DNA of 64,000 bases from an uncultured Piscirickettsiaceae bacterium. Its GTDB lineage: Bacteria > Pseudomonadota > Gammaproteobacteria > GCF-002020875. The notes under the pieces are model-generated. The model was given only the letters and a program-made list of their open reading frames with translations. It had not been told where the DNA came from and did no database searches. Both the position numbers and the translations under genes were made by a program. Location of the stretch: the NCBI GenBank assembly GCA_964344325.1, contig CAYFMX010000005.1, positions 9,013 to 73,012 on the forward strand, read 5' to 3'. Shown piece by piece: positions 1,879 to 48,197 of this stretch. Each line of letters opens with the position of its first letter. The first letter of the stretch is position 1.

Positions 1879-2979
1879 TTGGATGATTTGAAAGATTTGG
1901 AAGATAAAATAAATTATGGTTTTTTTTGGATTTTTAATGGTGAGTGGTTTTTGCCGAGATTGGTATTGAGAAGCGAGACATGGCTTTCAATAGATAAGGA
2001 TGATTTGTATGTTTTGAAAGAAACGAGAAAACTTCCAATAAATGATATAATAGAAACCGGATATCCGATTTCTAAGCTTCATATAGGTAGAAAATTTCGT
2101 TTGACAGTAATTTCTAACTGTAATATTCCATGGATGGGGTTTTCCCGATCAGAATTTCAACAGGCATCCATATATGGTACAGACATGCAGGGTGCAATAT
2201 TGATAAAATCAAAAATGCAGCAAGCTAGTTTGATAAAGGTGGATTTTCGAGATGCAAAATTACATATGGCAGATTTACGAGAAACAGATCTTAAAATGTC
2301 AAATTTACAGGGCGCAGATTTGTATCATGCGGATCTAAGTGATGCACTTTTGATAAGGACGAAAATGCAGAAAACTAATTTAAAGCATGCGAAATTACAG
2401 GGGGCGAATCTTTCTGGAGCGAATCTTTATAAGGCAAATTTACAAGAAGCAGATTTAGCGAAAGCAAATTTACAGAAAGCAGATTTATTAGGTGCAAATT
2501 TACAAGGCGCAGATTTGCAGGACACAGAGATGCAGGATGTAAATTTATGGCGTGTAGACTTGCGAGGTGCAAATTTATCTCGGGCGAATTTACAGGATGC
2601 AGATTTGTGGGGGGCAAGTTTACAAAGTGCAAATTTATGGAATACAAGATTGATAGGAGCCTCTTTGGAAGAGGTACAATTACAAGGGGCTATTTTAGAA
2701 AAGACAATATTTAGGAAAGAAGATATAGATAAATTATCTCGTTTAGGATTAAGTAATAAAAAATTAGATAAGCGCACTATGTTAGAAATTGAGAAAATAT
2801 TAGTGTCAAGAATTAAAAAAATTGAGCAAAGATTGAAGAAAGATAAAATTAGACATAACATAATTATAGTTCTAGAAGAAGAAAAAGAAATGATACAAGA
2901 GTCGGTCAGAATCTTAAGAAAGGCGTTGGGTAAAACTTCTAAGGAATGGATTGCTGATGAGCATAAAATATATCAATGA
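1879..2979 (+). CDS. pentapeptide-repeat protein with C-terminal coiled-coil tail
   Basis: Long run of A(N/D)LxxA(D/N)L pentapeptide repeats (ANLQGADLYHADLSDALL...), then a K/E-rich helical tail. Start is TTG at 1879 and uncertain. Confidence 0.8.
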   Translation: MDDLKDLEDKINYGFFWIFNGEWFLPRLVLRSETWLSIDKDDLYVLKETRKLPINDIIETGYPISKLHIGRKFRLTVISNCNIPWMGFSRSEFQQASIYGTDMQGAILIKSKMQQASLIKVDFRDAKLHMADLRETDLKMSNLQGADLYHADLSDALLIRTKMQKTNLKHAKLQGANLSGANLYKANLQEADLAKANLQKADLLGANLQGADLQDTEMQDVNLWRVDLRGANLSRANLQDADLWGASLQSANLWNTRLIGASLEEVQLQGAILEKTIFRKEDIDKLSRLGLSNKKLDKRTMLEIEKILVSRIKKIEQRLKKDKIRHNIIIVLEEEKEMIQESVRILRKALGKTSKEWIADEHKIYQ

Positions 2980-3898
2980 GATTAATTTTATTTTGACGGG
3001 TATGTTGATGACTGTTGTACCAGCGGTAATGGCGGAAGCAACTGTATATGGTCAGGCTGGAGCGTGGTTAGAAAATAGCGACCGTACAGGTAACTCTGGT
3101 GGTACTTCCGGTGTAGATGTTAAACAAGATAACCGTCTTGGTTTTAAAAGAGCTGAAGATTTAGGCGGTGGGTTGACTGCGATTTATAAATCTGAATTCC
3201 AGACTCAGTCTGAAAAAGAAGACACTAGCGATGAAGTTACTTTACGTGATCAATATGTCGGTGTTTCTGGTAATTTTGGTAAAGTACTTCTAGGTCGAAT
3301 GGAATTACCAACTGCTGTAGATGAAAGCAGTTACACTGATGATGCAGCTGCGTATGTTTCTCCAAAGAATAGTGGCTTGCAGGCAATAGTTTCGACATTG
3401 AAAGGTAGTCATATTAATAGTGCGCTAAATGATGAGAGTGTTGTAAAACTGACTTATAAAAATGGTCCGTTAGATCTTTCTATAGGTATGCATGATCAGA
3501 AAACAAATTCTAGTGACAGAGTTCATGTAGGAACAGGGGATACTTTCGGTAGCGTTCAGTTAGGTTCACAGTCTATTGGTTATGGTTCAGCACAGGCTGG
3601 TATTTATACTAGTGCTAATGAGGGGAAATATGATAGTACTGTTGCTCAAGATAATGCGGTTGATTTAGCTGCTTCCTATAAATTAGGGAACAATGTATTG
3701 AAAGTAGTGCATTCGCGTACAGAAGCAGAAGATTCCGATGCGTATAAAGATATTGATAATGAAATTACACAAACTGCAATTGAATTAGAGCATAAACTTT
3801 CCAAGCGCACATCTGCCTATGTAAATTTTAATGATCATAATGGTAGAGTATATGATGAAGAGCAATTAGATATAATTGGCTTGATTCACGGATTCTAA
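2951..3898 (+). CDS. secreted outer-membrane porin-like protein (Gram-negative porin superfamily, tentative)
   Basis: Signal peptide (…VVPAVMA/EA). Mature N-terminus AEATVYGQAGAWLEN resembles general porins. Alternating beta-strand pattern and C-terminal …IGLIHGF ending in Phe, typical of OMP barrels. Confidence 0.5.
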   Translation: MLMSIKYINEINFILTGMLMTVVPAVMAEATVYGQAGAWLENSDRTGNSGGTSGVDVKQDNRLGFKRAEDLGGGLTAIYKSEFQTQSEKEDTSDEVTLRDQYVGVSGNFGKVLLGRMELPTAVDESSYTDDAAAYVSPKNSGLQAIVSTLKGSHINSALNDESVVKLTYKNGPLDLSIGMHDQKTNSSDRVHVGTGDTFGSVQLGSQSIGYGSAQAGIYTSANEGKYDSTVAQDNAVDLAASYKLGNNVLKVVHSRTEAEDSDAYKDIDNEITQTAIELEHKLSKRTSAYVNFNDHNGRVYDEEQLDIIGLIHGF

Positions 3899-9668: not shown

Positions 9669-9926
9669 ATGAGCACTGGAAAGATTATCAAAGCAATCCC
9701 GCTAGATAATTACAGAATTGAAATCCAAACCAGCATCGGAATTTCAGGCATTTTCGATGTAAAACCCTATTTAAATGGAAGCGCATTTCAAGAATTGACT
9801 GATCAATCCTATTTCAAACTTGTCCGCCCTGCATACCATGGAATCGCATGGCCACACGAACAAGATTTCAGCGCAGATACGATTATTTGGGACATACAAA
9901 ACAACAAAAATATCCAGCAATGCTAA
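9669..9926 (+). CDS. DUF2442-like protein
   Basis: IIKAIPLDNYRIEIQTSIGISGIFDVKPYLNG…YFKLVRPAYHGIAWPHEQDFSADTI follows the DUF2442 pattern. Start taken at MSTGK; track ORF begins 9642. Confidence 0.55.
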   Translation: MSTGKIIKAIPLDNYRIEIQTSIGISGIFDVKPYLNGSAFQELTDQSYFKLVRPAYHGIAWPHEQDFSADTIIWDIQNNKNIQQC

Positions 9927-9930
9927 GCCT

Positions 9931-10509
9931 ATGACTGTAACAACCCTTAAGAAAAACCTTAAAACACTTTCAAACGATGATCTAGTCCAATATATTGTAG
10001 ACCTCTACAAGAAAGACAAGTTCGTCAAAGACTATTTTGATATAGAATTCAGTAAAAATAACCAAAATGATTTAGAGATATTTAATAAATACAAAAATAC
10101 TATAGAACATGAATTTTTCCCCACCAGGGGACATGGGAAGGCAAGGATTTCCAAACCCAAAAAGGCAATTTCAGAATACAAAAAAATATCAAACAACCAA
10201 ACTCATATTGCAGAACTGATGATTTTCTATGTAGAAAATGGTGTACAATTCACGTTTGAGTACGGCGATATTAACGACCAATTTTATACAAGCATGGGAA
10301 AAATGTATGAAGATGCATTAAAACATATAAAAGAACATGGGCTAAAAGATGCATTCCGTTTCAGATGCAAAAAGATCGTAACTGATACTGTTAACATGGG
10401 CTGGGGATTTCACGATATGCTTGAAAGGTTGCACAATACTTATTGCAGAGAATCATTACTTTCCGAAAACAAATTAAAAACAGATGAATCTTATAAAAAT
10501 AAAAAATAA
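9931..10509 (+). CDS. hypothetical protein (AT-rich island gene)
   Basis: 192-aa ORF from ATG 9931 (MTVTTLKKNLK…). The track ORF 9820.. is a 5' extension overlapping the previous gene. No recognisable family. Confidence 0.45.
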   Translation: MTVTTLKKNLKTLSNDDLVQYIVDLYKKDKFVKDYFDIEFSKNNQNDLEIFNKYKNTIEHEFFPTRGHGKARISKPKKAISEYKKISNNQTHIAELMIFYVENGVQFTFEYGDINDQFYTSMGKMYEDALKHIKEHGLKDAFRFRCKKIVTDTVNMGWGFHDMLERLHNTYCRESLLSENKLKTDESYKNKK

Positions 10510-23425: not shown

Positions 23426-24145
23426 TTATTTGAAAAATTTATTTTTACAATGATTGAATATTAAACTTATCAAATCAAACAGGCGTCTTCTTGTTTCATT
23501 AAAATAATCTATATCAATTAACACCTTATTATCCTCTGGAGGATTTATTCCAACTTCTTTCAATTTGCTTAAGTAAATATCATTAGTCTTCCAGGAATTG
23601 TGAATACCTAAATCACGCCTAGCTTTTGCCTCAACATATATTGGCCATACAGAATCTAATGCATCTTCTTCCATAGACAAGAGAGAAATTATTTCTCTTT
23701 TATACTCATTAGGCCTTTTGTACATTATCTTATTAAGATATCCCTCTGCTAAATAACGTATTGCTGTGTCAATACTTCCAAACTCTAATAACTTATTAAG
23801 TTCTATATTGTTTTTTCCAAGCTTATTGGGGTGAAGACATAAAACTTCTATTAATAAATCTTTAATAAACCCCTCTACTTCAGAAATCATCAATATATGT
23901 GATTGTAGATATACGAATCTAACCAGCTTAAACTCCTCAATCTGAAGAGTGTTGTTTTCAAACAAATGATCTGGAAGGTTGCTACACATATCTAATACTC
24001 TTTTATGAAGTTCGGTTCCTTGGTTTTTTAATAAAACTTGATTGATATTTAAAGCAATGGCTCCAAATTCTCCAAGAGCAAGAAGACTTTTTCCTTTTTC
24101 AACATACAATTCATAAATTTTATTCATGATACATCCTCCATACAT
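23426..24145 (-). CDS. hypothetical AT-rich protein with HEPN-like Rx4HN motif (candidate abortive-infection-type effector)
   Basis: All-helical ~235-aa protein. …EAKARRDLGIHNSW… fits the HEPN Rx4-6H motif. GC far below neighbours. Start probably MNKIY at 24127. Confidence 0.4.
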   Translation of the reverse strand: MYGGCIMNKIYELYVEKGKSLLALGEFGAIALNINQVLLKNQGTELHKRVLDMCSNLPDHLFENNTLQIEEFKLVRFVYLQSHILMISEVEGFIKDLLIEVLCLHPNKLGKNNIELNKLLEFGSIDTAIRYLAEGYLNKIMYKRPNEYKREIISLLSMEEDALDSVWPIYVEAKARRDLGIHNSWKTNDIYLSKLKEVGINPPEDNKVLIDIDYFNETRRRLFDLISLIFNHCKNKFFK

Positions 24146-25820: not shown

Positions 25821-26729
25821 CTATTTATCAGAGTGATACGTTGATAATCCTGGAGCAATTACACGGCTTTCAACATCATAAAGAGTAAGATGATTTCTTA
25901 GCCAAAGCTGGTAATCGTAACCTTCCAAATGATGATCTTCAGTACAATCTACATTCCAATGGTGCAACCAATAACCAACAACTGCTGCTCTAACTGATAG
26001 CTTAAGGCAGCCATTACTCATATTAAAGTCATGTTCAATTGTTTTTGGGTATTTCACATTTTTTTCATTTGGATGAGGTACTAACTCCAAATTAACCATA
26101 CGATTCCATTGGTAATCTGTTGAAGCATTTCCTACAGAAGCGTTAGGATCAAAGCTATTTCCTATTTCAATAGATACAATTCTTGTTAAGGCGTATGAAC
26201 GATATGGGTTTTTAGGCTTAGATTCATCATATGCCCTAACATACCAATGTATACCATTGTCAAACATTGCATGAGGTCTAATTATTTTTTTCGACAATCC
26301 ATTGTTGACTGAGCGATAAGATATATTTAATTGCTTCATCCCCGATATAGCTCTAGTCACTTTTTCTAATAGCTCTATTCTAGGCAATGAAAGTCTTTGA
26401 GGGCATAATATTCCGTCAAACTCAGACATACCAAGAGCCTCACTTACCTTTGCAGTACGAAGCTTAGAAAGAGCGGAGCTTATTGGCAACTCAAAAACTG
26501 GCTTGAAAGTCTCCTCAAGAATTTCGTATTTCTTCGAGCTTTGGTTAAGCATAAGGTTTTGTTCAGAAAGCTCTTTGTATAGCCTTATATCTCTAGTTGC
26601 GGCAGCCTCTCCAATACCAAACCTTAACGTCAAATCTCCCCTTGAGATCCAACCTCGAAATCTAAGCATGAATTCCAGATATTCCAACCTATCATAAACT
26701 ATCTTTGATAACTCGTTGATTTCTTTCAT
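25821..26729 (-). CDS. brxR: BrxR/CapW-family transcriptional regulator (wHTH–WYL–WCX)
   Basis: N-terminus IVYDRLEYLEFMLRFRGWISRGDLTLRFGIGEAAATRDIRLYKEL follows the BrxR wHTH consensus (DRL..LEFIEFRL.W.G.INR.DL…FG.S…DLR.Y.EL). Central …NGIHWYVRAYDESK… is the WYL motif. About 300 aa. Confidence 0.8.
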   Translation of the reverse strand: MKEINELSKIVYDRLEYLEFMLRFRGWISRGDLTLRFGIGEAAATRDIRLYKELSEQNLMLNQSSKKYEILEETFKPVFELPISSALSKLRTAKVSEALGMSEFDGILCPQRLSLPRIELLEKVTRAISGMKQLNISYRSVNNGLSKKIIRPHAMFDNGIHWYVRAYDESKPKNPYRSYALTRIVSIEIGNSFDPNASVGNASTDYQWNRMVNLELVPHPNEKNVKYPKTIEHDFNMSNGCLKLSVRAAVVGYWLHHWNVDCTEDHHLEGYDYQLWLRNHLTLYDVESRVIAPGLSTYHSDK

Positions 26730-38825: not shown

Positions 38826-39545
38826 CTACGATTTACTATGATTATGCTCGTGCAAGCGACGGATCAATCCATCTATACCATTGTGATCTATTTCTGTGCG
38901 AAAGCTGGATTGGTAACTTTTGACTAAACTGATTCCCTCCACCACAACATCAAATACTTTCCATTTGCCTGACAACTTCTCCTTACGCAACCGGAAGGCA
39001 ATGGGCATTCCCGGTCCATCTCTATCCTGCAAGTCATAAAAACTGGCATGTACTACTGTGCTTGTCTTGCCTCGTTGTAGAATATGCGGAGAAAATTCTA
39101 CCTGTTTTCCTTGAAACCCGAGCAATGCGGTCGCATAAGTATGGATCAGCATCTGTTTGAATGCATCCTGAAAATCATCTTTCTGTTGTTCTGAAATAGC
39201 CTTCCAATGCTTCCCCAACATCCAGATCGACATCACATCAAAATCCAGAATTGGGAGAATGAGTTCATCCACCAACTCTAGAGCCACTTGATAAACTTCG
39301 CCATCTCCCTCGCGCATCCGCGATTCTTCCTTCTCCAAGCGTTCCAATACCTTTATTGTCACACCGCGGAGCATCTCATCTGGCCGATCTTCAACATCTT
39401 GAAAAGCCTGTGCCTGCGACCCTGCAACATCTTGAAAAGCCTGTGCCTGCGACCCTGCAACATCTTGAAAAGCCTGTGCCTGCGACCCTAGCATTACGAA
39501 AAAAAGGAAAAATAATGAAAACAATACCGGATTTTTTTTAAGCAT
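38826..39545 (-). CDS. mlaC: MlaC/Ttg2D-family periplasmic phospholipid-binding protein with N-terminal triplicated 11-aa repeat
   Basis: Signal peptide, then GSQAQAFQDVA repeated three times (33-bp DNA repeats, 39380..39480), then the MlaC fold region (…LDFDVMSIWMLGKHWKAISEQQKDDF…). Confidence 0.75.
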   Translation of the reverse strand: MLKKNPVLFSLFFLFFVMLGSQAQAFQDVAGSQAQAFQDVAGSQAQAFQDVEDRPDEMLRGVTIKVLERLEKEESRMREGDGEVYQVALELVDELILPILDFDVMSIWMLGKHWKAISEQQKDDFQDAFKQMLIHTYATALLGFQGKQVEFSPHILQRGKTSTVVHASFYDLQDRDGPGMPIAFRLRKEKLSGKWKVFDVVVEGISLVKSYQSSFRTEIDHNGIDGLIRRLHEHNHSKS

Positions 39546-41939: not shown

Positions 41940-42129
41940 GCGCCAAATTCTCAGCAGATTTCCGATTAGGAAGCTAAAAAAGGGAGCAGGATAACATTCT
42001 ACTGATTGATCAGAAAATGTTTTTTATCGCTTAAACTTAATCTTTGTGCTCGTATTAGCGCAACGAGTCCAATATAATGAATCCATTTTGTTAATCGGGC
42101 AGTTCAAAATCTACGGAGAAATGATCCTC

Positions 42130-42711
42130 ATGAAAAAATATCCAACATTCTCGCGCACAGTGCTATTGGCTGGCGCACTGACTCTTTCTGCCAGCTCTGT
42201 ATTTGCGGAAGGTGGCTTTATGAGCACAAAAGGCTCCGGTTTTTATGGTTTTCTTACCTATCAAAACAGTGAAGCCGATTCAGGAGACCTTCCCAAAACG
42301 AACTCAACCGAAGAAGAGAATGATCATTTCACTTTAGGCCTCGGTTACTCTCTAAACAAATATCTTGCTATCGAATCCAGTTATATGGATATGGATACTT
42401 TAATTGATCAACAGGATGCCACCAATTACATAGATATTTCCGGATGGAATCTAGGGACTACTTTGTCTATCCCTGCCACAAATAAACTAACAGCTTTTAT
42501 CAAAGGTGGAGTATATTTATGGGATAGGGAAATGAACGGGCCTAGTTATAGTAATCTAGGAAAGGAAGAAGATGGAAGCGATCCTTATTTGGGTATTGGC
42601 TTAGAATATAGTATTAACAAACGTTTTTCTGTCTTGGGCGATTACACTCAATATAAAGTTGACAATATAGATATTGATACTTATAGCGGGGGTATAAAAG
42701 TAGATTTCTAA
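42130..42711 (+). CDS. small outer-membrane beta-barrel protein, paralog 1
   Basis: Signal peptide MKKYPTFSRTVLLAGALTLSASSVFA. Alternating strand pattern. C-terminal …GGIKVDF. 71-ish% identical to the next gene except in three predicted loops. Confidence 0.6.
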   Translation: MKKYPTFSRTVLLAGALTLSASSVFAEGGFMSTKGSGFYGFLTYQNSEADSGDLPKTNSTEEENDHFTLGLGYSLNKYLAIESSYMDMDTLIDQQDATNYIDISGWNLGTTLSIPATNKLTAFIKGGVYLWDREMNGPSYSNLGKEEDGSDPYLGIGLEYSINKRFSVLGDYTQYKVDNIDIDTYSGGIKVDF

Positions 42712-42737
42712 TACTGAGAATAATCTATCTCCCGACA

Positions 42738-42773
42738 AAAAGGCCCTGTTAAAAATATAGGGCTTTTTTATTG
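42738..42773 (+). terminator. rho-independent terminator
   Basis: aaaaaggccctgttaaaaatatagggcttttttatt. Confidence 0.75.
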
Positions 42774-42878
42774 ATTTCATAATGACTTACTTCATATCAA
42801 TCTGTAACTGTAACGGTCAGCTCAACACGGACACGTTATCAACATGAACTGTTCAAAATCTACAGAGAAACGATTCCT

Positions 42879-43481
42879 ATGAAAAAATATCCAACATTTT
42901 CACACACGGTGCTACTGGCTGGTGTACTGACCCTTTCTTCCGGCTCTGTATTTGCAGAAGGTAGCCTTATAAGCACAAAAGGCTCCGGTTTTTATGGTTT
43001 TCTTACTTATCAAAATAGTGAGGCCAGTTCAGATGAAATTACACCATCTAGTCCTCTTGTACCGATAACAACAGATAATGACCATTTTAGCTTAGGCCTT
43101 GGTTACTCTCTGAATAAATATCTTGCTATCGAATCCAGCTATATGGATATGGATACCTTAGTCGCTAGACATGGTTTAGCTCACGATGAGATGGATATTT
43201 CTGGATGGAATCTCGGTGCTGCTTTGTCTATCCCAACTACAGATAAGCTAATCCCCTTTATCAAAGGTGGAATATATTTATGGGATAGGGAAATGAAAGG
43301 AGGTTTATATAGTTATAGTCATCTGGCAGCTATTAAAATGGATGGAAGTGACCCTTACTTGGGGATCGGCTTAGAATACGGTCTTAACAAACGTTTTTCT
43401 GTGATAGGCGATTATACAAGATATAAGGCTGACGATATTGATGTTGATACCTATAGCGGGGGTATAAAAGTGGATTTCTAA
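42879..43481 (+). CDS. small outer-membrane beta-barrel protein, paralog 2
   Basis: Signal peptide MKKYPTFSHTVLLAGVLTLSSGSVFA. Same barrel core and C-terminus. The duplicated unit includes about 30 nt of leader. Confidence 0.6.
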   Translation: MKKYPTFSHTVLLAGVLTLSSGSVFAEGSLISTKGSGFYGFLTYQNSEASSDEITPSSPLVPITTDNDHFSLGLGYSLNKYLAIESSYMDMDTLVARHGLAHDEMDISGWNLGAALSIPTTDKLIPFIKGGIYLWDREMKGGLYSYSHLAAIKMDGSDPYLGIGLEYGLNKRFSVIGDYTRYKADDIDVDTYSGGIKVDF

Positions 43482-43620
43482 GGTTGGAATTTATCTATCT
43501 CCCTACGAAAAAACTCTACCAAAAAACGATTTTTTATTGATCTCAGATCGCTAATCAAAACTATGCACTTTAAGTGCATAGCGGTTAAAGTAGTAAAGCT
43601 GTCAATTGCAGCTATGATTT

Positions 43621-44204
43621 ATGGATTACATGTCCCACCACGGGACAAAACGCAGCCGTCCGCAAGAGTTGGTTCTCGGCACGCTTTCAGTTTTGTCGTT
43701 GCGGATGGATTATTTCCTGCAGGATGATGCCTTTGATGCGCAAACAATTCTGAACAATCCGGAAAAAGGCTATATCTCCCTCTATACGCTGGGGCGCGAT
43801 TATTACAAGGTATTGCACAAACGACTAGACCAGCTGGCGCAAAAAATCCGCGCTGAAATTGTCGATTTTAATTACCGCGCTTTCACCAATAGCGCATCAG
43901 TGCTGGAAAAAGGAATCGCAGAACAAGCCGATTTGGGCTGGATCGGTAAGCACACTAACCTGATTAACCAAGAAGCAGGATCGTGGTTTTTTCTTGGCGA
44001 AATTTATACCGATTTGCCATTAGACACATTTTCCAATTCCCAAAAATCAGAAAGAGAGTCAATGGGAAAAAAATAATGCAAGCGTTGCAAAAACGTCTCG
44101 CCGATCCCGATTGTACGCCACTAGTCACCGAACATGCCCAGTGTGCATTAGCCAGCAGACCCCCTCGCGATTCCAAAGTGTTACTCAGCGGAGAAATGGC
44201 ATAA
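43621..44204 (+). pseudogene. queG: epoxyqueuosine reductase QueG remnant (5'-truncated, Fe-S domain deleted, frameshifted)
   Basis: 43621..44076 encodes the QueG N-domain from …HGTKRSRPQELVLGTLSVLSLRMDYF… to …GWIGKHTNLINQEAGSWFFLGEIYTDLPL. The 4Fe-4S CxxCxxCxxxCP region is absent. C-terminal HEAT-like part (…LQKRLADPDCTPLVTEHAQCALAS…) is in another frame (43983..44204). Confidence 0.7.
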
Positions 44205-44312: not shown

Positions 44313-45380
44313 ATGAGCCAGCCCATCACTCTGGTTACCCGACCGCACGGGGAGGAGAGCGTTAGCCGCACGATGATGCTGGTGATCCTCGCGCTTTCAC
44401 CCGCCACATTATTTGGTCTTTACCAGTTTGGCTGGCCGGCAATTAATCTGTTTCTGATCACCGTTTTCACCGCAGTCGCTGCCGAGGCGGTGATGCTCAA
44501 GTTGCGCAACCGCCCGATCAAACTACATTTGATGGATGGTTCTGCGCTGGTCACTGGATGGCTGCTAGCGATGACACTGCCACCGTGGGCACCGTGGTGG
44601 ATCGGTGTACTCGGCAGCCTGTTTGCGATTGTACTGGCGAAGCAACTCTACGGCGGCTTGGGGCAAAATCTCTTCAACCCGGCGATGGTGGGGCGAGTGA
44701 TTCTGCTAGTGTCATTCCCGCTGGAAATGACGCTCTTCATCACTCCACAATCAATTTTCTCCGCCGATGCCCCCGGTTTTTTGGAAGGGGTGCAAATTAC
44801 TTTCGGCAGTATTACTGACGCGCAACACCATTGGGACCAATTCAGCAGTGCAACCTTGTTAAGCCATTTAAGCATTGAGTTAAATCGAGGTGAAACAATC
44901 CCTACTGCAATGGCACATTATTATCAGCCGTGGGAGTTATTTGCTGGTTTTGTTCCTGGCAGTCTCGCGGAAACTTCCGGGCTACTGATTCTACTGGGTG
45001 GATTGTTCCTGCTCCAAAAGCGCGTAATTTCCTGGCATATTCCGGTTTCAATGCTCGGCACATTGATTGTGCTCGCGACGGTTGGCAATCTGATTGCGCC
45101 CGAAACGCATCCGAATGCGTTGGTACATCTGGTCTCTGGCGCAACGCTAATTGGCGCGTTTTTCATTCTCACCGATCCAGTGGGGAGTCCAGCCTCGCTA
45201 CGTGGGCAGATTATCTTTGGGATTGGTGCCGGAGTTTTGCTCTATGTGGTGCGCACTTGGGCTAGCTATCCGGAAGGGATGGGGTTTATCGTGTTATTGA
45301 TGAATGCAACCACACCGCTCATTGACCATTTCATCAAGCCACGTGTGTATGGTGAGGTCAAAAAAGAAGTATCCAGATGA
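44313..45380 (+). CDS. rnfD: Rnf/Rsx electron-transport complex subunit D (RnfD family), stand-alone
   Basis: …AKQLYGGLGQNLFNPAMVGRVILLVSFP… and overall 355-aa polytopic layout match RnfD rather than NqrB. Start at MSQPITLV (44313). Confidence 0.8.
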   Translation: MSQPITLVTRPHGEESVSRTMMLVILALSPATLFGLYQFGWPAINLFLITVFTAVAAEAVMLKLRNRPIKLHLMDGSALVTGWLLAMTLPPWAPWWIGVLGSLFAIVLAKQLYGGLGQNLFNPAMVGRVILLVSFPLEMTLFITPQSIFSADAPGFLEGVQITFGSITDAQHHWDQFSSATLLSHLSIELNRGETIPTAMAHYYQPWELFAGFVPGSLAETSGLLILLGGLFLLQKRVISWHIPVSMLGTLIVLATVGNLIAPETHPNALVHLVSGATLIGAFFILTDPVGSPASLRGQIIFGIGAGVLLYVVRTWASYPEGMGFIVLLMNATTPLIDHFIKPRVYGEVKKEVSR

Positions 45381-46446: not shown

Positions 46447-47289
46447 TCAAACAGAAAAATAATGTCCCTGCGGATGATGCACCACAATCGCAGAGGTGGA
46501 CTCTTCTGGCCAAAGCTGCTCGTCCTCACTCATCTGCACACCAATACGCTCCGCGCCAAGTAACTCAATGATTTTATGCTGTTCGGACAAATCGGGACAG
46601 GCCGGATACCCAAATGAAAAACGCGCCCCGCGATATTTCTGCTTGATCATCTCCTGAATTTCCCGCGCATCTTCCATCGCGAAACCCAGTTCGGAGCGGA
46701 TCATGCGGTGGATGTATTCTGCCAGCCCTTCTGCCCCTTCGGCGTTGAGACCATGCCAGTAGAGGTATTCCTGATACTGATCAGTCGTAAACAACTCCCG
46801 CGCAAAATCGGAAGCGGATTGTCCGACCGTCACCAATTGCAGCGGCAACACATCCATTTCGCCCGATTCGACCGTGCAGAAAAAATCGGTGATGCAGCGT
46901 TTTTTGTTTTTGGTTTGACGCGGTAATGGAAATCGGCAGCGCTCTTCTTTACTGTCCGGAGCAGCATAAACGATCAACTCTTCCCCATCTGCCTGCGCCG
47001 GAAAATAACCGTAGACTGCCTGTGGCTGGAGGATATTCTGCGCCACGCTTTCGTGCACCAATCGGTTCAGAATTGGATCAACCTCTGTACGCGCCCACTG
47101 TTTGTACTCCTCTTTGGATTTCCCTTTGGGCTTGAAACCCCACTGTACCTTGTAGAGTGCGGTGCGGTTGATATAAGGAACCAACGCCGTCAGCGGCACT
47201 TGCTCCACCACCCGGCTACCCCAAAACGGCGGCTTCGGGATTGGATTGTCGGTTTGTAATTTTGTTGATGTTGTTTCTGCTTCATTCAT
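46447..47289 (-). CDS. stand-alone methionine synthase (MetH) reactivation/AdoMet-binding domain protein
   Basis: …KYRGARFSFGYPACPDLSEQHKIIELLGAERIGVQMSEDEQLWPEESTSAIVVHHPQGHYFSV matches the C-terminal activation domain of B12-dependent MetH. No other MetH modules adjacent. Confidence 0.7.
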   Translation of the reverse strand: MNEAETTSTKLQTDNPIPKPPFWGSRVVEQVPLTALVPYINRTALYKVQWGFKPKGKSKEEYKQWARTEVDPILNRLVHESVAQNILQPQAVYGYFPAQADGEELIVYAAPDSKEERCRFPLPRQTKNKKRCITDFFCTVESGEMDVLPLQLVTVGQSASDFARELFTTDQYQEYLYWHGLNAEGAEGLAEYIHRMIRSELGFAMEDAREIQEMIKQKYRGARFSFGYPACPDLSEQHKIIELLGAERIGVQMSEDEQLWPEESTSAIVVHHPQGHYFSV

Positions 47290-47462: not shown

Positions 47463-48197
47463 TTAAACCTTCTTGCACTGGAGCAGCACATGGAATGGAG
47501 GCATGTTGTTGTGTGGCAAACCTCCACCAACTGCGCCGGTATTAGTTCCACGATTTGCATTACCATATCGGCCTGGCATATGTTCCGTCGCAGGGATCGG
47601 TGCCCCCCGATTGTCAGTCCAGTGAACGCTATGACGGTGAGCAGGCAATTCTGCAGTTGTCAATGTATGGCTTTCTGCACCACCCTGCCGCCCCGGGAAA
47701 CGTGCAGAAAGGCCATTGGAACGATTCAGATTTGCCCCAAGCAAAAAACGTCCACGTGCCTGAACAAACTCTTCCCAACCACTCGGGCAACTCCGCAAGT
47801 CAAAAAATGCGACTGTACCCTTTGGAATTTCCATCTGGTTCACAATCAGCTTTGCTTGACCAGTATCCAGACTTGCGATCTTTTTCTGGATATCAGAAAC
47901 GCTCCCTTGCGTCTGTTTAAGTAGTGCACCTATGTTATCCACTACTTGAATATTTGCTTTTGCGCTCAGCGTTGCAGAAATTTCTGACAACTGCTTACTA
48001 CTGGCAGACTGATCTATCTGATAAGTTTCCAACGGAACGACAGTTTTGGACAGATTCTGCTCCACCTTTGCCAGACGTTCTTCCATTGCTTTACGGTCAT
48101 CGCTATCGTTTGTTTTGATCGTAGTAACAATGGCAGAGATGGCCAGCACAACACTGATCCCTGCGATAATGATAGGTGCGCCTGATTGTTCACTCAT
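47463..48197 (-). CDS. membrane-anchored protein with C-terminal phage tail-collar (Collar/MdpB-like) domain
   Basis: N-terminal TM (PIIIAGISVVLAISAIV), coiled-coil stalk. C-terminal …GTVAFFDLRSCPSGWEEF…RFLLGA…GGAESHTLTTAELPAHRH…LPHNNMPPFHVLLQCKKV is the tail-collar domain pattern. Confidence 0.7.
   Translation of the reverse strand: MSEQSGAPIIIAGISVVLAISAIVTTIKTNDSDDRKAMEERLAKVEQNLSKTVVPLETYQIDQSASSKQLSEISATLSAKANIQVVDNIGALLKQTQGSVSDIQKKIASLDTGQAKLIVNQMEIPKGTVAFFDLRSCPSGWEEFVQARGRFLLGANLNRSNGLSARFPGRQGGAESHTLTTAELPAHRHSVHWTDNRGAPIPATEHMPGRYGNANRGTNTGAVGGGLPHNNMPPFHVLLQCKKV

Follow-up and report, generated by a model that had tools for sequence, protein, structure and literature searches.

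Conserved barrels and divergent surface loops in a tandem pair of predicted OmpA-like outer-membrane proteins

Introduction

Two neighboring genes of an uncultured Piscirickettsiaceae bacterium encode small secreted proteins that agree over most of their length and differ mainly in three short segments. This raises the question whether the segments were driven apart by diversifying selection on surface epitopes, as the original prediction for this locus proposed, or drifted apart under weak constraint. Here, the pair was analyzed within the whole stretch of DNA that contains it, 64,000 nucleotides in length and termed the window in the following. The pair probably represents an old, lineage-specific tandem duplication of a stand-alone outer-membrane barrel resembling the N-terminal part of OmpA, with loops that are unconstrained.

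Results and discussion

Two intact paralogues with the signals of outer-membrane proteins

Both genes are encoded on the + strand as tandem paralogues, omp1 at 42130-42711 (a precursor of 193 aa) and omp2 at 42879-43481 (200 aa, of the same architecture). The two ORFs are intact, and their products are identical at 142 of 200 positions (71%; BLASTP E 1e-99). These data back the description of two tandem outer-membrane proteins of about 195 aa that share leader, signal peptide, strands and C-terminus. The start given for the first gene, position 42046, had to be corrected, as the ORF finder had extended the frame to an upstream GTG; the start common to both copies is the ATG at 42130 and 42879, respectively. 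As read from the sequence, both proteins carry an N-terminal Sec signal that proceeds from MKK through a hydrophobic core (helix 8-18 by AlphaFold2 (AF2)) to SVFA and EG, and in omp1 the signal peptide comprises residues 1-26 with cleavage between SVFA and EG. Common to omp1 and omp2 are this signal peptide (MKKYPTFS...SVFA, followed by EG) and the C-terminal GGIKVDF, which contains a beta-signal, G-I-K-V-D-F, with Phe as the aromatic last residue. The region is AT-rich, as had been noted: the GC content of the pair is 0.385-0.39 in comparison to 0.465 for the window, and its GC3 is 0.30-0.33 in comparison to 0.51 +/- 0.10 for the window's long ORFs.

Both proteins matched the Pfam families PF13505 (OMP_b-brl; 58.2 bits for omp1 and 51.9 bits for omp2, gathering cut-off 28.7) and PF01389 (OmpA_membrane; 43.2 and 37.4 bits, gathering cut-off 21). 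AF2 predicted eight strands for each copy at pLDDT values of 85.6 (omp1) and 85.3 (omp2), so that the eight-stranded barrel anticipated for these genes is recovered at the level of the models. Top matches in Foldseek were the OmpA transmembrane (TM) domain, Ail, OmpX and NspA, with TM-scores of 0.75-0.87 at ~2.6-3.4 Å against the OmpA TM domain, and of 0.82-0.87 for omp1. A family profile of 94 sequences matched the OmpA TM domain across the whole barrel (E 2e-29 to 3e-25), and the same profile reached E values of 5e-11 for Ail and 6e-5 for OmpX. By Pfam match, predicted strand number and signals, omp1 and omp2 would thus be OmpA-like / OMP_b-brl eight-stranded barrels. Neither appears to be OmpA proper: both are single-domain proteins that end at the last barrel strand, without the C-terminal periplasmic OmpA_C domain, and the OmpA equivalog NF008071 scored only 29.1 (omp1) and 22.7 bits (omp2) against a cut-off of 277, covering model positions 32-177 of 358.

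The closest structural reference, the N-terminal TM domain of E. coli OmpA (PDB 1BXW, 1QJP, 9FZC/9FZD; PF01389), is likewise an antiparallel barrel of eight strands. In comparison to OmpA, however, identity is only 18-21%, the C-terminal domain that binds peptidoglycan in the periplasm is absent, L4 is cut to ~2 residues, and the genes form a tandem paralogue pair. Proteins of the OmpX / Ail / NspA class, which act as adhesins or serum-resistance factors via their loops, share the barrel-only build with ~150-175 mature residues and protruding loops, and matched the omp proteins in Foldseek at E 3e-10 to 3e-7. In sequence and profile, though, the omp proteins clearly resemble the OmpA TM domain more, and the Pfam Ail/Lom/OmpX family PF06316 gave no match in omp1 or omp2 at E <= 1. 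The resemblance to Ail and OmpX is one at fold level only. A phage Lom-like origin of the pair was considered and rejected, as no PHROG family matched at E <= 0.01.

Differences between the copies cluster in predicted extracellular loops

In both AF2 models the three variable segments coincide with L1, L2 and L3, located at the end of the barrel opposite the termini. By the universal topology of outer-membrane proteins, this end, and with it L1-L3 of the models, is taken to be extracellular. The segments also align with stretches of OmpA that we take to be its surface loops L1-L3, i.e., HDTGFI...HENQ (L1), GRMPYKG... and RADTK.... Thus, the models agree with the prediction that the divergent segments map to extracellular loops, and do not place them in periplasmic turns.

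In omp1, L1 (42277-42321, +; residues 50-64, DSGDLPKTNSTEEEN) connects strands 37-51 and 64-74, has a net charge of -4 and shows a local dN of 0.82. L2 (42403-42432, +; residues 92-101, IDQQDATNYI; local dN 0.75) forms the tip of the beta3-beta4 hairpin, and L3 (42535-42570, +; residues 136-147, NGPSYSNLGKEE; local dN 0.52) lies between strands 120-136 and 145-161. The corresponding segments of omp2 are L1 (43026-43079, +; residues 50-67, SSDEITPSSPLVPITTDN), which is longer than L1 of omp1 by 3 residues and lies between strands 37-51 and 67-77, L2 (43161-43193, +; residues 95-105, VARHGLAHDEM) at the distal end of the beta3-beta4 hairpin with strands 82-98 and 101-117, and L3 (43296-43340, +; residues 140-154, KGGLYSYSHLAAIKM) between strands 124-141 and 151-168, with a net charge of +2. 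The modelled loops of omp1 span 7-12 residues for L1-L3; those of omp2 span 15 residues for L1 and 9 for L3, and only 2 for L2, because its beta3-beta4 hairpin runs on through the variable segment. Turns in the models comprise 4-6 residues overall and 4 in omp1.

Within the three segments as originally delimited, 29 of 37 aligned positions differ between the copies, whereas the rest of the mature protein differs at 18 of 130 (Fisher p = 2e-13). Defining the loops independently from the AF2 model gave the same picture (21/27 vs. 26/140 positions; p = 5e-9). All four indels between omp1 and omp2 fall inside the variable segments, and the length of each is a multiple of 3 nt. The variation is clustered and not spread over the whole sequence. 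The loops of omp1 carry a total net charge of about -7 and those of omp2 one of about -2, a difference of ~5 units, and the outer faces of the two proteins are chemically different.

Purifying selection on the barrel and near-neutral divergence of the loops

For the barrel, comparison of omp1 with omp2 yielded a dN of 0.064-0.066 and a dS of 0.54-0.58, resulting in an omega of 0.11, and relative-rate counts with four outgroups showed no imbalance between omp1 and omp2. Purifying selection on the barrel is strong and symmetric in both, and the idea that one copy decays faster was rejected on the symmetric relative-rate test. In the loops, dN was 0.69 and dS 0.79 (omega 0.87), and the ratio of loop dN to barrel dS (0.54) was 1.27. 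The loop omega of ~0.9-1.3 is indistinguishable from 1; similarly, loop pN (0.451) and barrel pS (0.387) were not different (z = 0.9). As only two sequences are compared and their loops align poorly, a value close to 1 may conceal positively selected sites mixed with constrained ones.

These values do not demonstrate the diversifying selection on surface epitopes that the original prediction invoked. According to this proposal, phage-receptor escape, host immune or host recognition would keep two antigenically distinct isoforms, a scenario that is possible for the omp loops and that agrees with the concentration of differences in the predicted outward loops, with their charge difference and with a loop dN slightly above barrel dS. 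At the nucleotide level, divergence is 0.46 in the loops, at all three codon positions, roughly double the values of the adjoining non-coding DNA (0.24 in the 3' flank, 0.18 in the leader), which would fit an acceleration of the loops if the flanks were neutral; however, the terminator and the ribosome-binding site lie within these flanks. Both copies have moreover stayed intact in a neighborhood with remnants of other genes, i.e., queG, possibly metH, and an orphan rnfD. There are precedents in OmpA, whose loops L1-L3 are well-known receptor sites for phages and colicins. In E. coli, OmpA loops carry allelic variation and the loop alleles affect surface properties (PMC9560509), and diversification of the loops was reported for OmpA of Yersinia ruckeri (PMC7876001). 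Conserved strands together with varied loops are, however, no proof of positive selection by themselves, and the homologue and population data speak against it. No homologue above ~38% identity was returned when 5.8 and 1.84 billion sequences, which stand for ~15 billion proteins, were searched, and none was close enough for a site test. Across 92 distant homologues L1-L3 correspond to high-entropy, indel-bearing columns; in the nearest homologue clusters, the loops are conserved between near-identical variants and not hypervariable. Two independent metagenome contigs carry the omp locus, both 100% identical to the window, and no population variation was visible across the window and these contigs. 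The surroundings of the omp genes contained no repeats of the phase-variation type, no invertible segments, no silent cassettes and no significant inverted repeats. Taken together, we regard diversifying selection as an unlikely explanation for the pair.

The lineage-specific duplication with unconstrained loops that we favor can be outlined as follows, based on the sequence and on established biogenesis of outer-membrane proteins. Sec would export each precursor, with cleavage following SVFA, and periplasmic chaperones would ferry the proteins across the periplasm. BAM would then recognize the C-terminal beta-signal and insert the barrel into the outer membrane, with both termini and three turns of 4 residues facing the periplasm and L1-L3 facing outward. 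Under little structural constraint, the loops would have gathered substitutions and in-frame indels at an approximately neutral rate, so that positive selection is not needed to explain their divergence, and some adaptive contribution is conceivable. By analogy with other small barrels, the likeliest role of omp1 and omp2 would be that of an abundant surface or structural protein, or of an adhesin or receptor.

Relation to other duplicated barrels

The three nearest homologues are found on environmental contigs, are single-copy and none of them occurs in tandem; L2 and L3 of the nearest homologues are ~13-30 residues longer than those of omp1 and omp2. Scanning the GTDB representative genomes with patterns of the omp pair revealed no relative, and the window contains no further omp copies. 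The Opa proteins of Neisseria are also eight-stranded barrels with a conserved framework and variation in the surface loops (SV, HV1, HV2), and their genes are dispersed, phase-variable via CTCTT leader repeats and shuffled by recombination. Compared with this general description of the Opa system, the omp locus lacks such repeats, as no short tandem repeats were found in the leader/signal-peptide region, and has only two copies in the window. OmpA1 and OmpA2 of Porphyromonas gingivalis, a member of another phylum, are likewise adjacent OmpA-like paralogues; they represent full-length OmpA with a periplasmic domain. Distinct host-interaction roles are described for their surface regions, and the two are treated as subunits of a predicted heterotrimer (PMC5300881). 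In contrast, the omp pair shows no sign of oligomerisation.

Divergence concentrated in the loops of these twin barrels is a real but ordinary pattern. Conserved strands with variable loops are textbook behavior for outer-membrane barrels, of which the pair is a further example, and the wider significance of the pair is small. As two probably abundant surface proteins with no close relative among ~15 billion public proteins, omp1 and omp2 could serve as lineage-specific markers; should a culture become available or the host be identified, they could also be considered as candidate points of contact with phages or the host.

The duplicated unit and its terminators

At the DNA level, the repeat unit extends over 42102-42779 and again over 42851-43545; its period is 749-770 nt. 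Each unit starts with a shared 28-nt leader on the + strand that includes a Shine-Dalgarno sequence (42102-42129, GGAGAAA; twin at 42851-42878, AGAGAAA; 23 of 28 positions identical). This leader is the sole significant similarity upstream of both start codons (local score 39; highest shuffle score 26). Beyond the leader and a T-run motif, the spacers on either side of the pair and the one separating the copies share no detectable similarity (p = 0.39-0.81).

The claim that each copy has its own terminator holds for omp1 only. A terminator scan located a Rho-independent terminator downstream of omp1 (42737-42769, +), in which a 13-bp stem is followed by a T-run; it folds at -18 kcal/mol (z -4.7), and 0 of 200 shuffles were as good. 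The stretch downstream of omp2 (43496-43545, +) is a decayed homologue that has kept the T-run motif and lost the stem (divergence from the omp1 3' flank, p = 0.24), and folds at -1.1 kcal/mol only (z 0.15). A unit-boundary motif, TTTTTTATYGMTY, occurs at 42764-42776 and 43530-43542, and as a third copy at 42020-42032 (+), 110 nt upstream of omp1. These are exactly three matches in 64 kb, where 0.05 were expected, spaced by 744 and 766 nt. A unit of ~750 bp consisting of the 28-nt leader, gene and terminator was thus copied long ago, with a synonymous divergence of ~0.55.

Given the strong terminator of omp1, transcription of omp2 would start mainly from a promoter of its own, and omp1 and omp2 could therefore be separately regulated. 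A consensus scan found no promoter for omp2.

The queG remnant and alternative histories of the locus

Directly downstream of the pair lies a 151-codon remnant of queG, the gene for tRNA epoxyqueuosine reductase (43621-44076, +), which matches TIGR00276 with 165 bits (cut-off 200) at model positions 40-175 of 337. Its sole domain is Pfam QueG_DUF1730; the C-terminal half that binds Fe-S and cobalamin is absent. The omp pair had been proposed to sit where the 5' part of queG should be. The 5' end is indeed missing, and no QueG N-terminus was found in any frame upstream of the remnant, but the 3' end is missing too.

These data bear on the idea that the pair arrived as an islet by horizontal transfer, destroying queG on insertion, and that one copy is redundant and heading to decay. 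Such a history would account for a queG whose first ~40 codons are missing right where the array ends downstream, for the lost omp2 terminator and for a GC3 ~2 SD below that of the window's long ORFs. Moreover, 0 of 160 mlaF loci from other proteobacteria have an OMP homologue or queG nearby; a scan of genomes and JGI metagenomes with the neighboring MlaF gave best matches of 60-64% identity. However, an AT content as high is also seen in other surface or accessory genes of the window, and since the 3' half of queG was lost as well, its decay needs no insertion of the omp pair. Both ORFs being intact with every indel in frame, the barrel omega and the symmetric relative rates argue against decay of one copy. 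Signatures of an integrase, transposase, tRNA or flanking repeats were not found, and the missing PHROG match points in the same direction. We therefore consider an acquired islet quite improbable.

Similarly doubtful, in our view, is a scenario of an eroding locus in an unsampled, possibly host-restricted proteobacterial lineage, in which the barrels serve as alternative surface isoforms under frequency-dependent selection by phage or host. The third terminator-tail motif upstream of omp1 would then reflect a once longer array, and the pair a small decaying surface-variation locus with loops unusually short in comparison to all near homologues.

Concerted evolution, in which the duplication is far older than dS suggests and gene conversion homogenizes the barrel while the loops escape, is very improbable: synonymous divergence of barrel segments does range from 0 to >1, the 5' third is more alike than the rest (87% vs. 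80% DNA identity), and leader and 3' flank are more alike than synonymous sites, but barrel synonymous divergence is substantial (pS 0.39) and statistically homogeneous, both over 14 segments (chi-square p = 0.13) and in a comparison of the 5' with the 3' part (Fisher p = 0.18), by which a gene-conversion mosaic was rejected, the longest identical runs coincide with invariant amino-acid motifs, and the low barrel omega explains the similarity without conversion.

Rfam and tRNA scans of the window returned nothing. An ORF of 42 codons at 44076-44204 was considered as a C-terminal tail of QueG and rejected, as it had no NCBIfam or PDB sequence-search support.

Two tandem genes encode OmpA-like barrels

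The paralogues omp1 (42130-42711, + strand, 193 aa) and omp2 (42879-43481, + strand, 200 aa) adjoin each other and lie within two copies (42102-42779 and 42851-43545) of a DNA unit that repeats every 749-770 nt. The GTG at 42046 merely opens an upstream extension of the omp1 reading frame; the start common to both copies is an ATG, directly preceded in each by a conserved 28-nt leader containing a Shine-Dalgarno sequence. The proteins share 142 of 200 positions (71% identity, E 1e-99), and no third copy was found within the 64-kb window. The tandem duplication with a shared barrel and divergent loops, as described in the original prediction, is real and statistically solid.

Both proteins score above the Pfam gathering thresholds for OMP_b-brl (PF13505) and OmpA_membrane (PF01389). 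A profile built from 94 family members matched the transmembrane domain of E. coli OmpA along the entire barrel (E 2e-29 to 3e-25), and Ail (5e-11) and OmpX (6e-5) more weakly. AlphaFold2 models built with the same family alignment gave a confident 8-stranded barrel for both copies (pLDDT 85.6 for omp1 and 85.3 for omp2, pTM 0.76), for which the best Foldseek match in the PDB was the OmpA transmembrane domain (TM up to 0.87), ahead of Ail, OmpX, NspA and OprF-N. Each sequence carries a Sec signal peptide, with cleavage after SVFA, and the canonical C-terminal beta-signal G-I-K-V-D-F. Because of the Pfam, profile and fold matches, and because the proteins stop at the last strand and lack the periplasmic OmpA_C domain, they are predicted to be stand-alone OmpA-N-terminal-like barrels. 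OmpA orthology was rejected, since OmpA_C is missing and the scores fall far under the cut-off of the OmpA equivalog model; Pfam and PHROG searches spoke against membership of the Ail/Lom family and identity with phage Lom, respectively.

Only the pair itself and a single match at 25% identity came back from a search across 5.8 billion clustered proteins. Exhaustive HMMER against 1.84 billion cluster representatives yielded 798 relatives, with a top score of 99 bits and 31-38% identity. The pair adds a new, lineage-specific member to a kind of protein that is very well known.

Sequence differences cluster in the predicted extracellular loops

In the omp1 model, strands span residues 37-51, 64-74, 79-92, 100-115, 120-136, 145-161, 166-177 and 180-192. 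The three variable segments (residues 50-64, 92-101 and 136-147) connect beta1-beta2, beta3-beta4 and beta5-beta6, and the periplasmic turns (75-78, 116-119 and 162-165) are conserved and of four residues each. Since both termini of all such barrels are periplasmic, the variable segments correspond to the outward loops L1, L2 and L3. The omp2 model agrees on this placement. In a direct HMMER alignment to OmpA the segments face HDTGFI...HENQ, GRMPYKG... and RADTK..., which we take, from the OmpA structure and the phage-resistance literature, to be its surface loops L1-L3. Both models and the alignment thus support the predicted extracellular position.

Differences were found at 21 of 27 positions in the AlphaFold2-defined loops versus 26 of the 140 other positions (Fisher p = 5e-9; p = 2e-13 with the segments originally delimited), a clustering far beyond chance. 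All indels between the copies (9, 3, 6 and 3 nt) are in frame and lie in loops. Judged from sequence, the loops of omp1 carry a net charge of about -7 and those of omp2 about -2, the latter also being more hydrophobic and richer in proline and histidine. This is the usual pattern of conserved barrel and variable loops, as known for OmpA alleles of E. coli (PMC9560509), for Yersinia ruckeri OmpA (PMC7876001) and for the adjacent genes OmpA1/OmpA2 of P. gingivalis (PMC5300881).

Neutral divergence suffices to explain the loops

The original prediction attributed the loop differences to diversifying selection. In a two-sequence Nei-Gojobori comparison, the 156 non-loop codons gave dN 0.066, dS 0.54 and a dN/dS (omega) of 0.12 (0.11 if only the mature protein is counted), and the 37 codons of L1-L3 gave dN 0.69, dS 0.79 and omega 0.87 (1.27 against barrel dS). 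Loop pN (0.451) did not differ from barrel pS (0.387; z = 0.9), and the loops therefore diverged at about the silent-site rate. Given the age of the duplication, unconstrained sequence would diverge as the loops did, and neutral divergence suffices.

Loop divergence was 0.46 at each codon position, roughly double the values for the leader (0.18) and the 3' flank (0.24). This excess points toward selection, but the flanks are not neutral yardsticks because the ribosome-binding site and the terminator lie within them. Among 92 distant homologues, L1-L3 coincide with high-entropy columns and with the sites of insertions, and in the nearest homologues L2 and L3 are about 13-30 residues longer than in the pair. 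Within the clusters of these nearest homologues at ≥90% identity (12, 3 and 2 members), L2 and L3 are almost invariant, and two ENA metagenome contigs carrying the locus, from two runs, are 100% identical to the window. The homologues are too distant for a site-wise test, and positive selection on the loops is unproven, being neither shown nor excluded. A gene-conversion mosaic is not indicated, as synonymous divergence along the barrel is homogeneous (chi-square p = 0.13), and neither copy is decaying, since relative-rate counts with four outgroups revealed no asymmetry.

Transcription signals and unit boundaries

Each copy had been thought to possess its own terminator. This holds for omp1, which has a strong intrinsic terminator downstream (42737-42769, + strand, -18 kcal/mol, z -4.7), but not for omp2, where the homologous stretch has kept the T-run but no longer has the stem (-1.1 kcal/mol). 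A separate hairpin (43560-43582) lies between omp2 and the downstream queG remnant; it is a 9-10-bp perfect palindrome ACTATGCACTT-TAA-AGTGCATAGC of -11.6 kcal/mol and lacks a U-tract on the + strand. Given the strong terminator after omp1, omp2 needs its own promoter within the 74-nt omp1-omp2 spacer; a consensus promoter scan found none, and the spacer is not homologous to the sequence preceding omp1.

Exactly three copies of the 13-nt motif TTTTTTATYGMTY are present in the 64 kb, versus 0.05 expected, at 42020-42032, 42764-42776 and 43530-43542 (spacing 744 and 766 nt). Copies 2 and 3 form the tails of the omp1 and omp2 terminators; copy 1 is located 110 nt upstream of omp1 and is preceded by no gene. 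The upstream copy may be what remains of a third array unit, since lost, or a short repeat that mediated the duplication.

Genomic neighbourhood and composition

The pair is flanked on one side by the divergently transcribed mlaFEDC operon and on the other by the queG remnant (43621-44076). The latter covers TIGR00276 positions 40-175 of 337 with 165 bits, under the 200-bit cut-off. That the pair occupies the place of the 5' part of queG is literally true; no QueG N-terminus was found upstream in any frame, and the Fe-S half is absent downstream. A 42-codon ORF without detectable similarity to QueG or anything else overlaps the remnant's stop codon (TAATG), the two spanning 43621-44204. The queG gene has suffered more than one deletion, so that the cause and order of its loss cannot be inferred. 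Further downstream lie an intact-looking rnfD (44313-45380, 376 bits to TIGR01946) without rnfABC upstream or rnfGE downstream, tsaB, and a lone MetH C-terminal activation domain (46447-47289, a 280-aa ORF matching model positions 899-1182). Together, the lone rnfD, the MetH fragment and the queG remnant suggest a rearranged or eroding region.

About 4 kb from the pair, an isolated 244-aa ORF (47463-48197, - strand) has a phage tail-fibre/baseplate Gp10_C-like C-terminal domain (PHROG 24267, E 1e-12; tail-fibre phrogs, 1e-8; Pfam Gp10_C under cut-off). On the other side, mlaC (38826-39545, - strand) contains a 33-nt tandem repeat in three copies (39392-39489, 100% matches) encoding AGSQAQAFQDV x 3 just past the MlaC signal peptide, apparently a recent expansion that kept the reading frame of this periplasmic lipid-binding protein.

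The best MlaF matches among GTDB representatives and JGI metagenomes reach only 60-64% identity; these collections therefore include no close relative of the source lineage. None of 160 MlaF-matched loci had an OMP homologue or queG nearby. No mobile-element signatures were found beside the pair, and scans of the 64-kb window revealed no tRNA genes and no Rfam families at gathering score.

The pair is AT-rich, as first noted, with a GC3 of 0.30-0.33 versus 0.51 +/- 0.10 for long ORFs of the window. Several more accessory or surface genes there, including a porin, are likewise AT-rich, and this composition is weak evidence of foreign origin. A second AT-rich surface-related islet (2134-3898, GC3 0.24-0.28) comprises a pentapeptide-repeat gene (2134-2979) and a Porin_4 general porin (2957-3898), whose start it overlaps. 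Low GC3 is also seen in the genes for DUF6155 (9838-10509) and a WYL-domain protein (25821-26729) and in an unassigned ORF (23426-24145).
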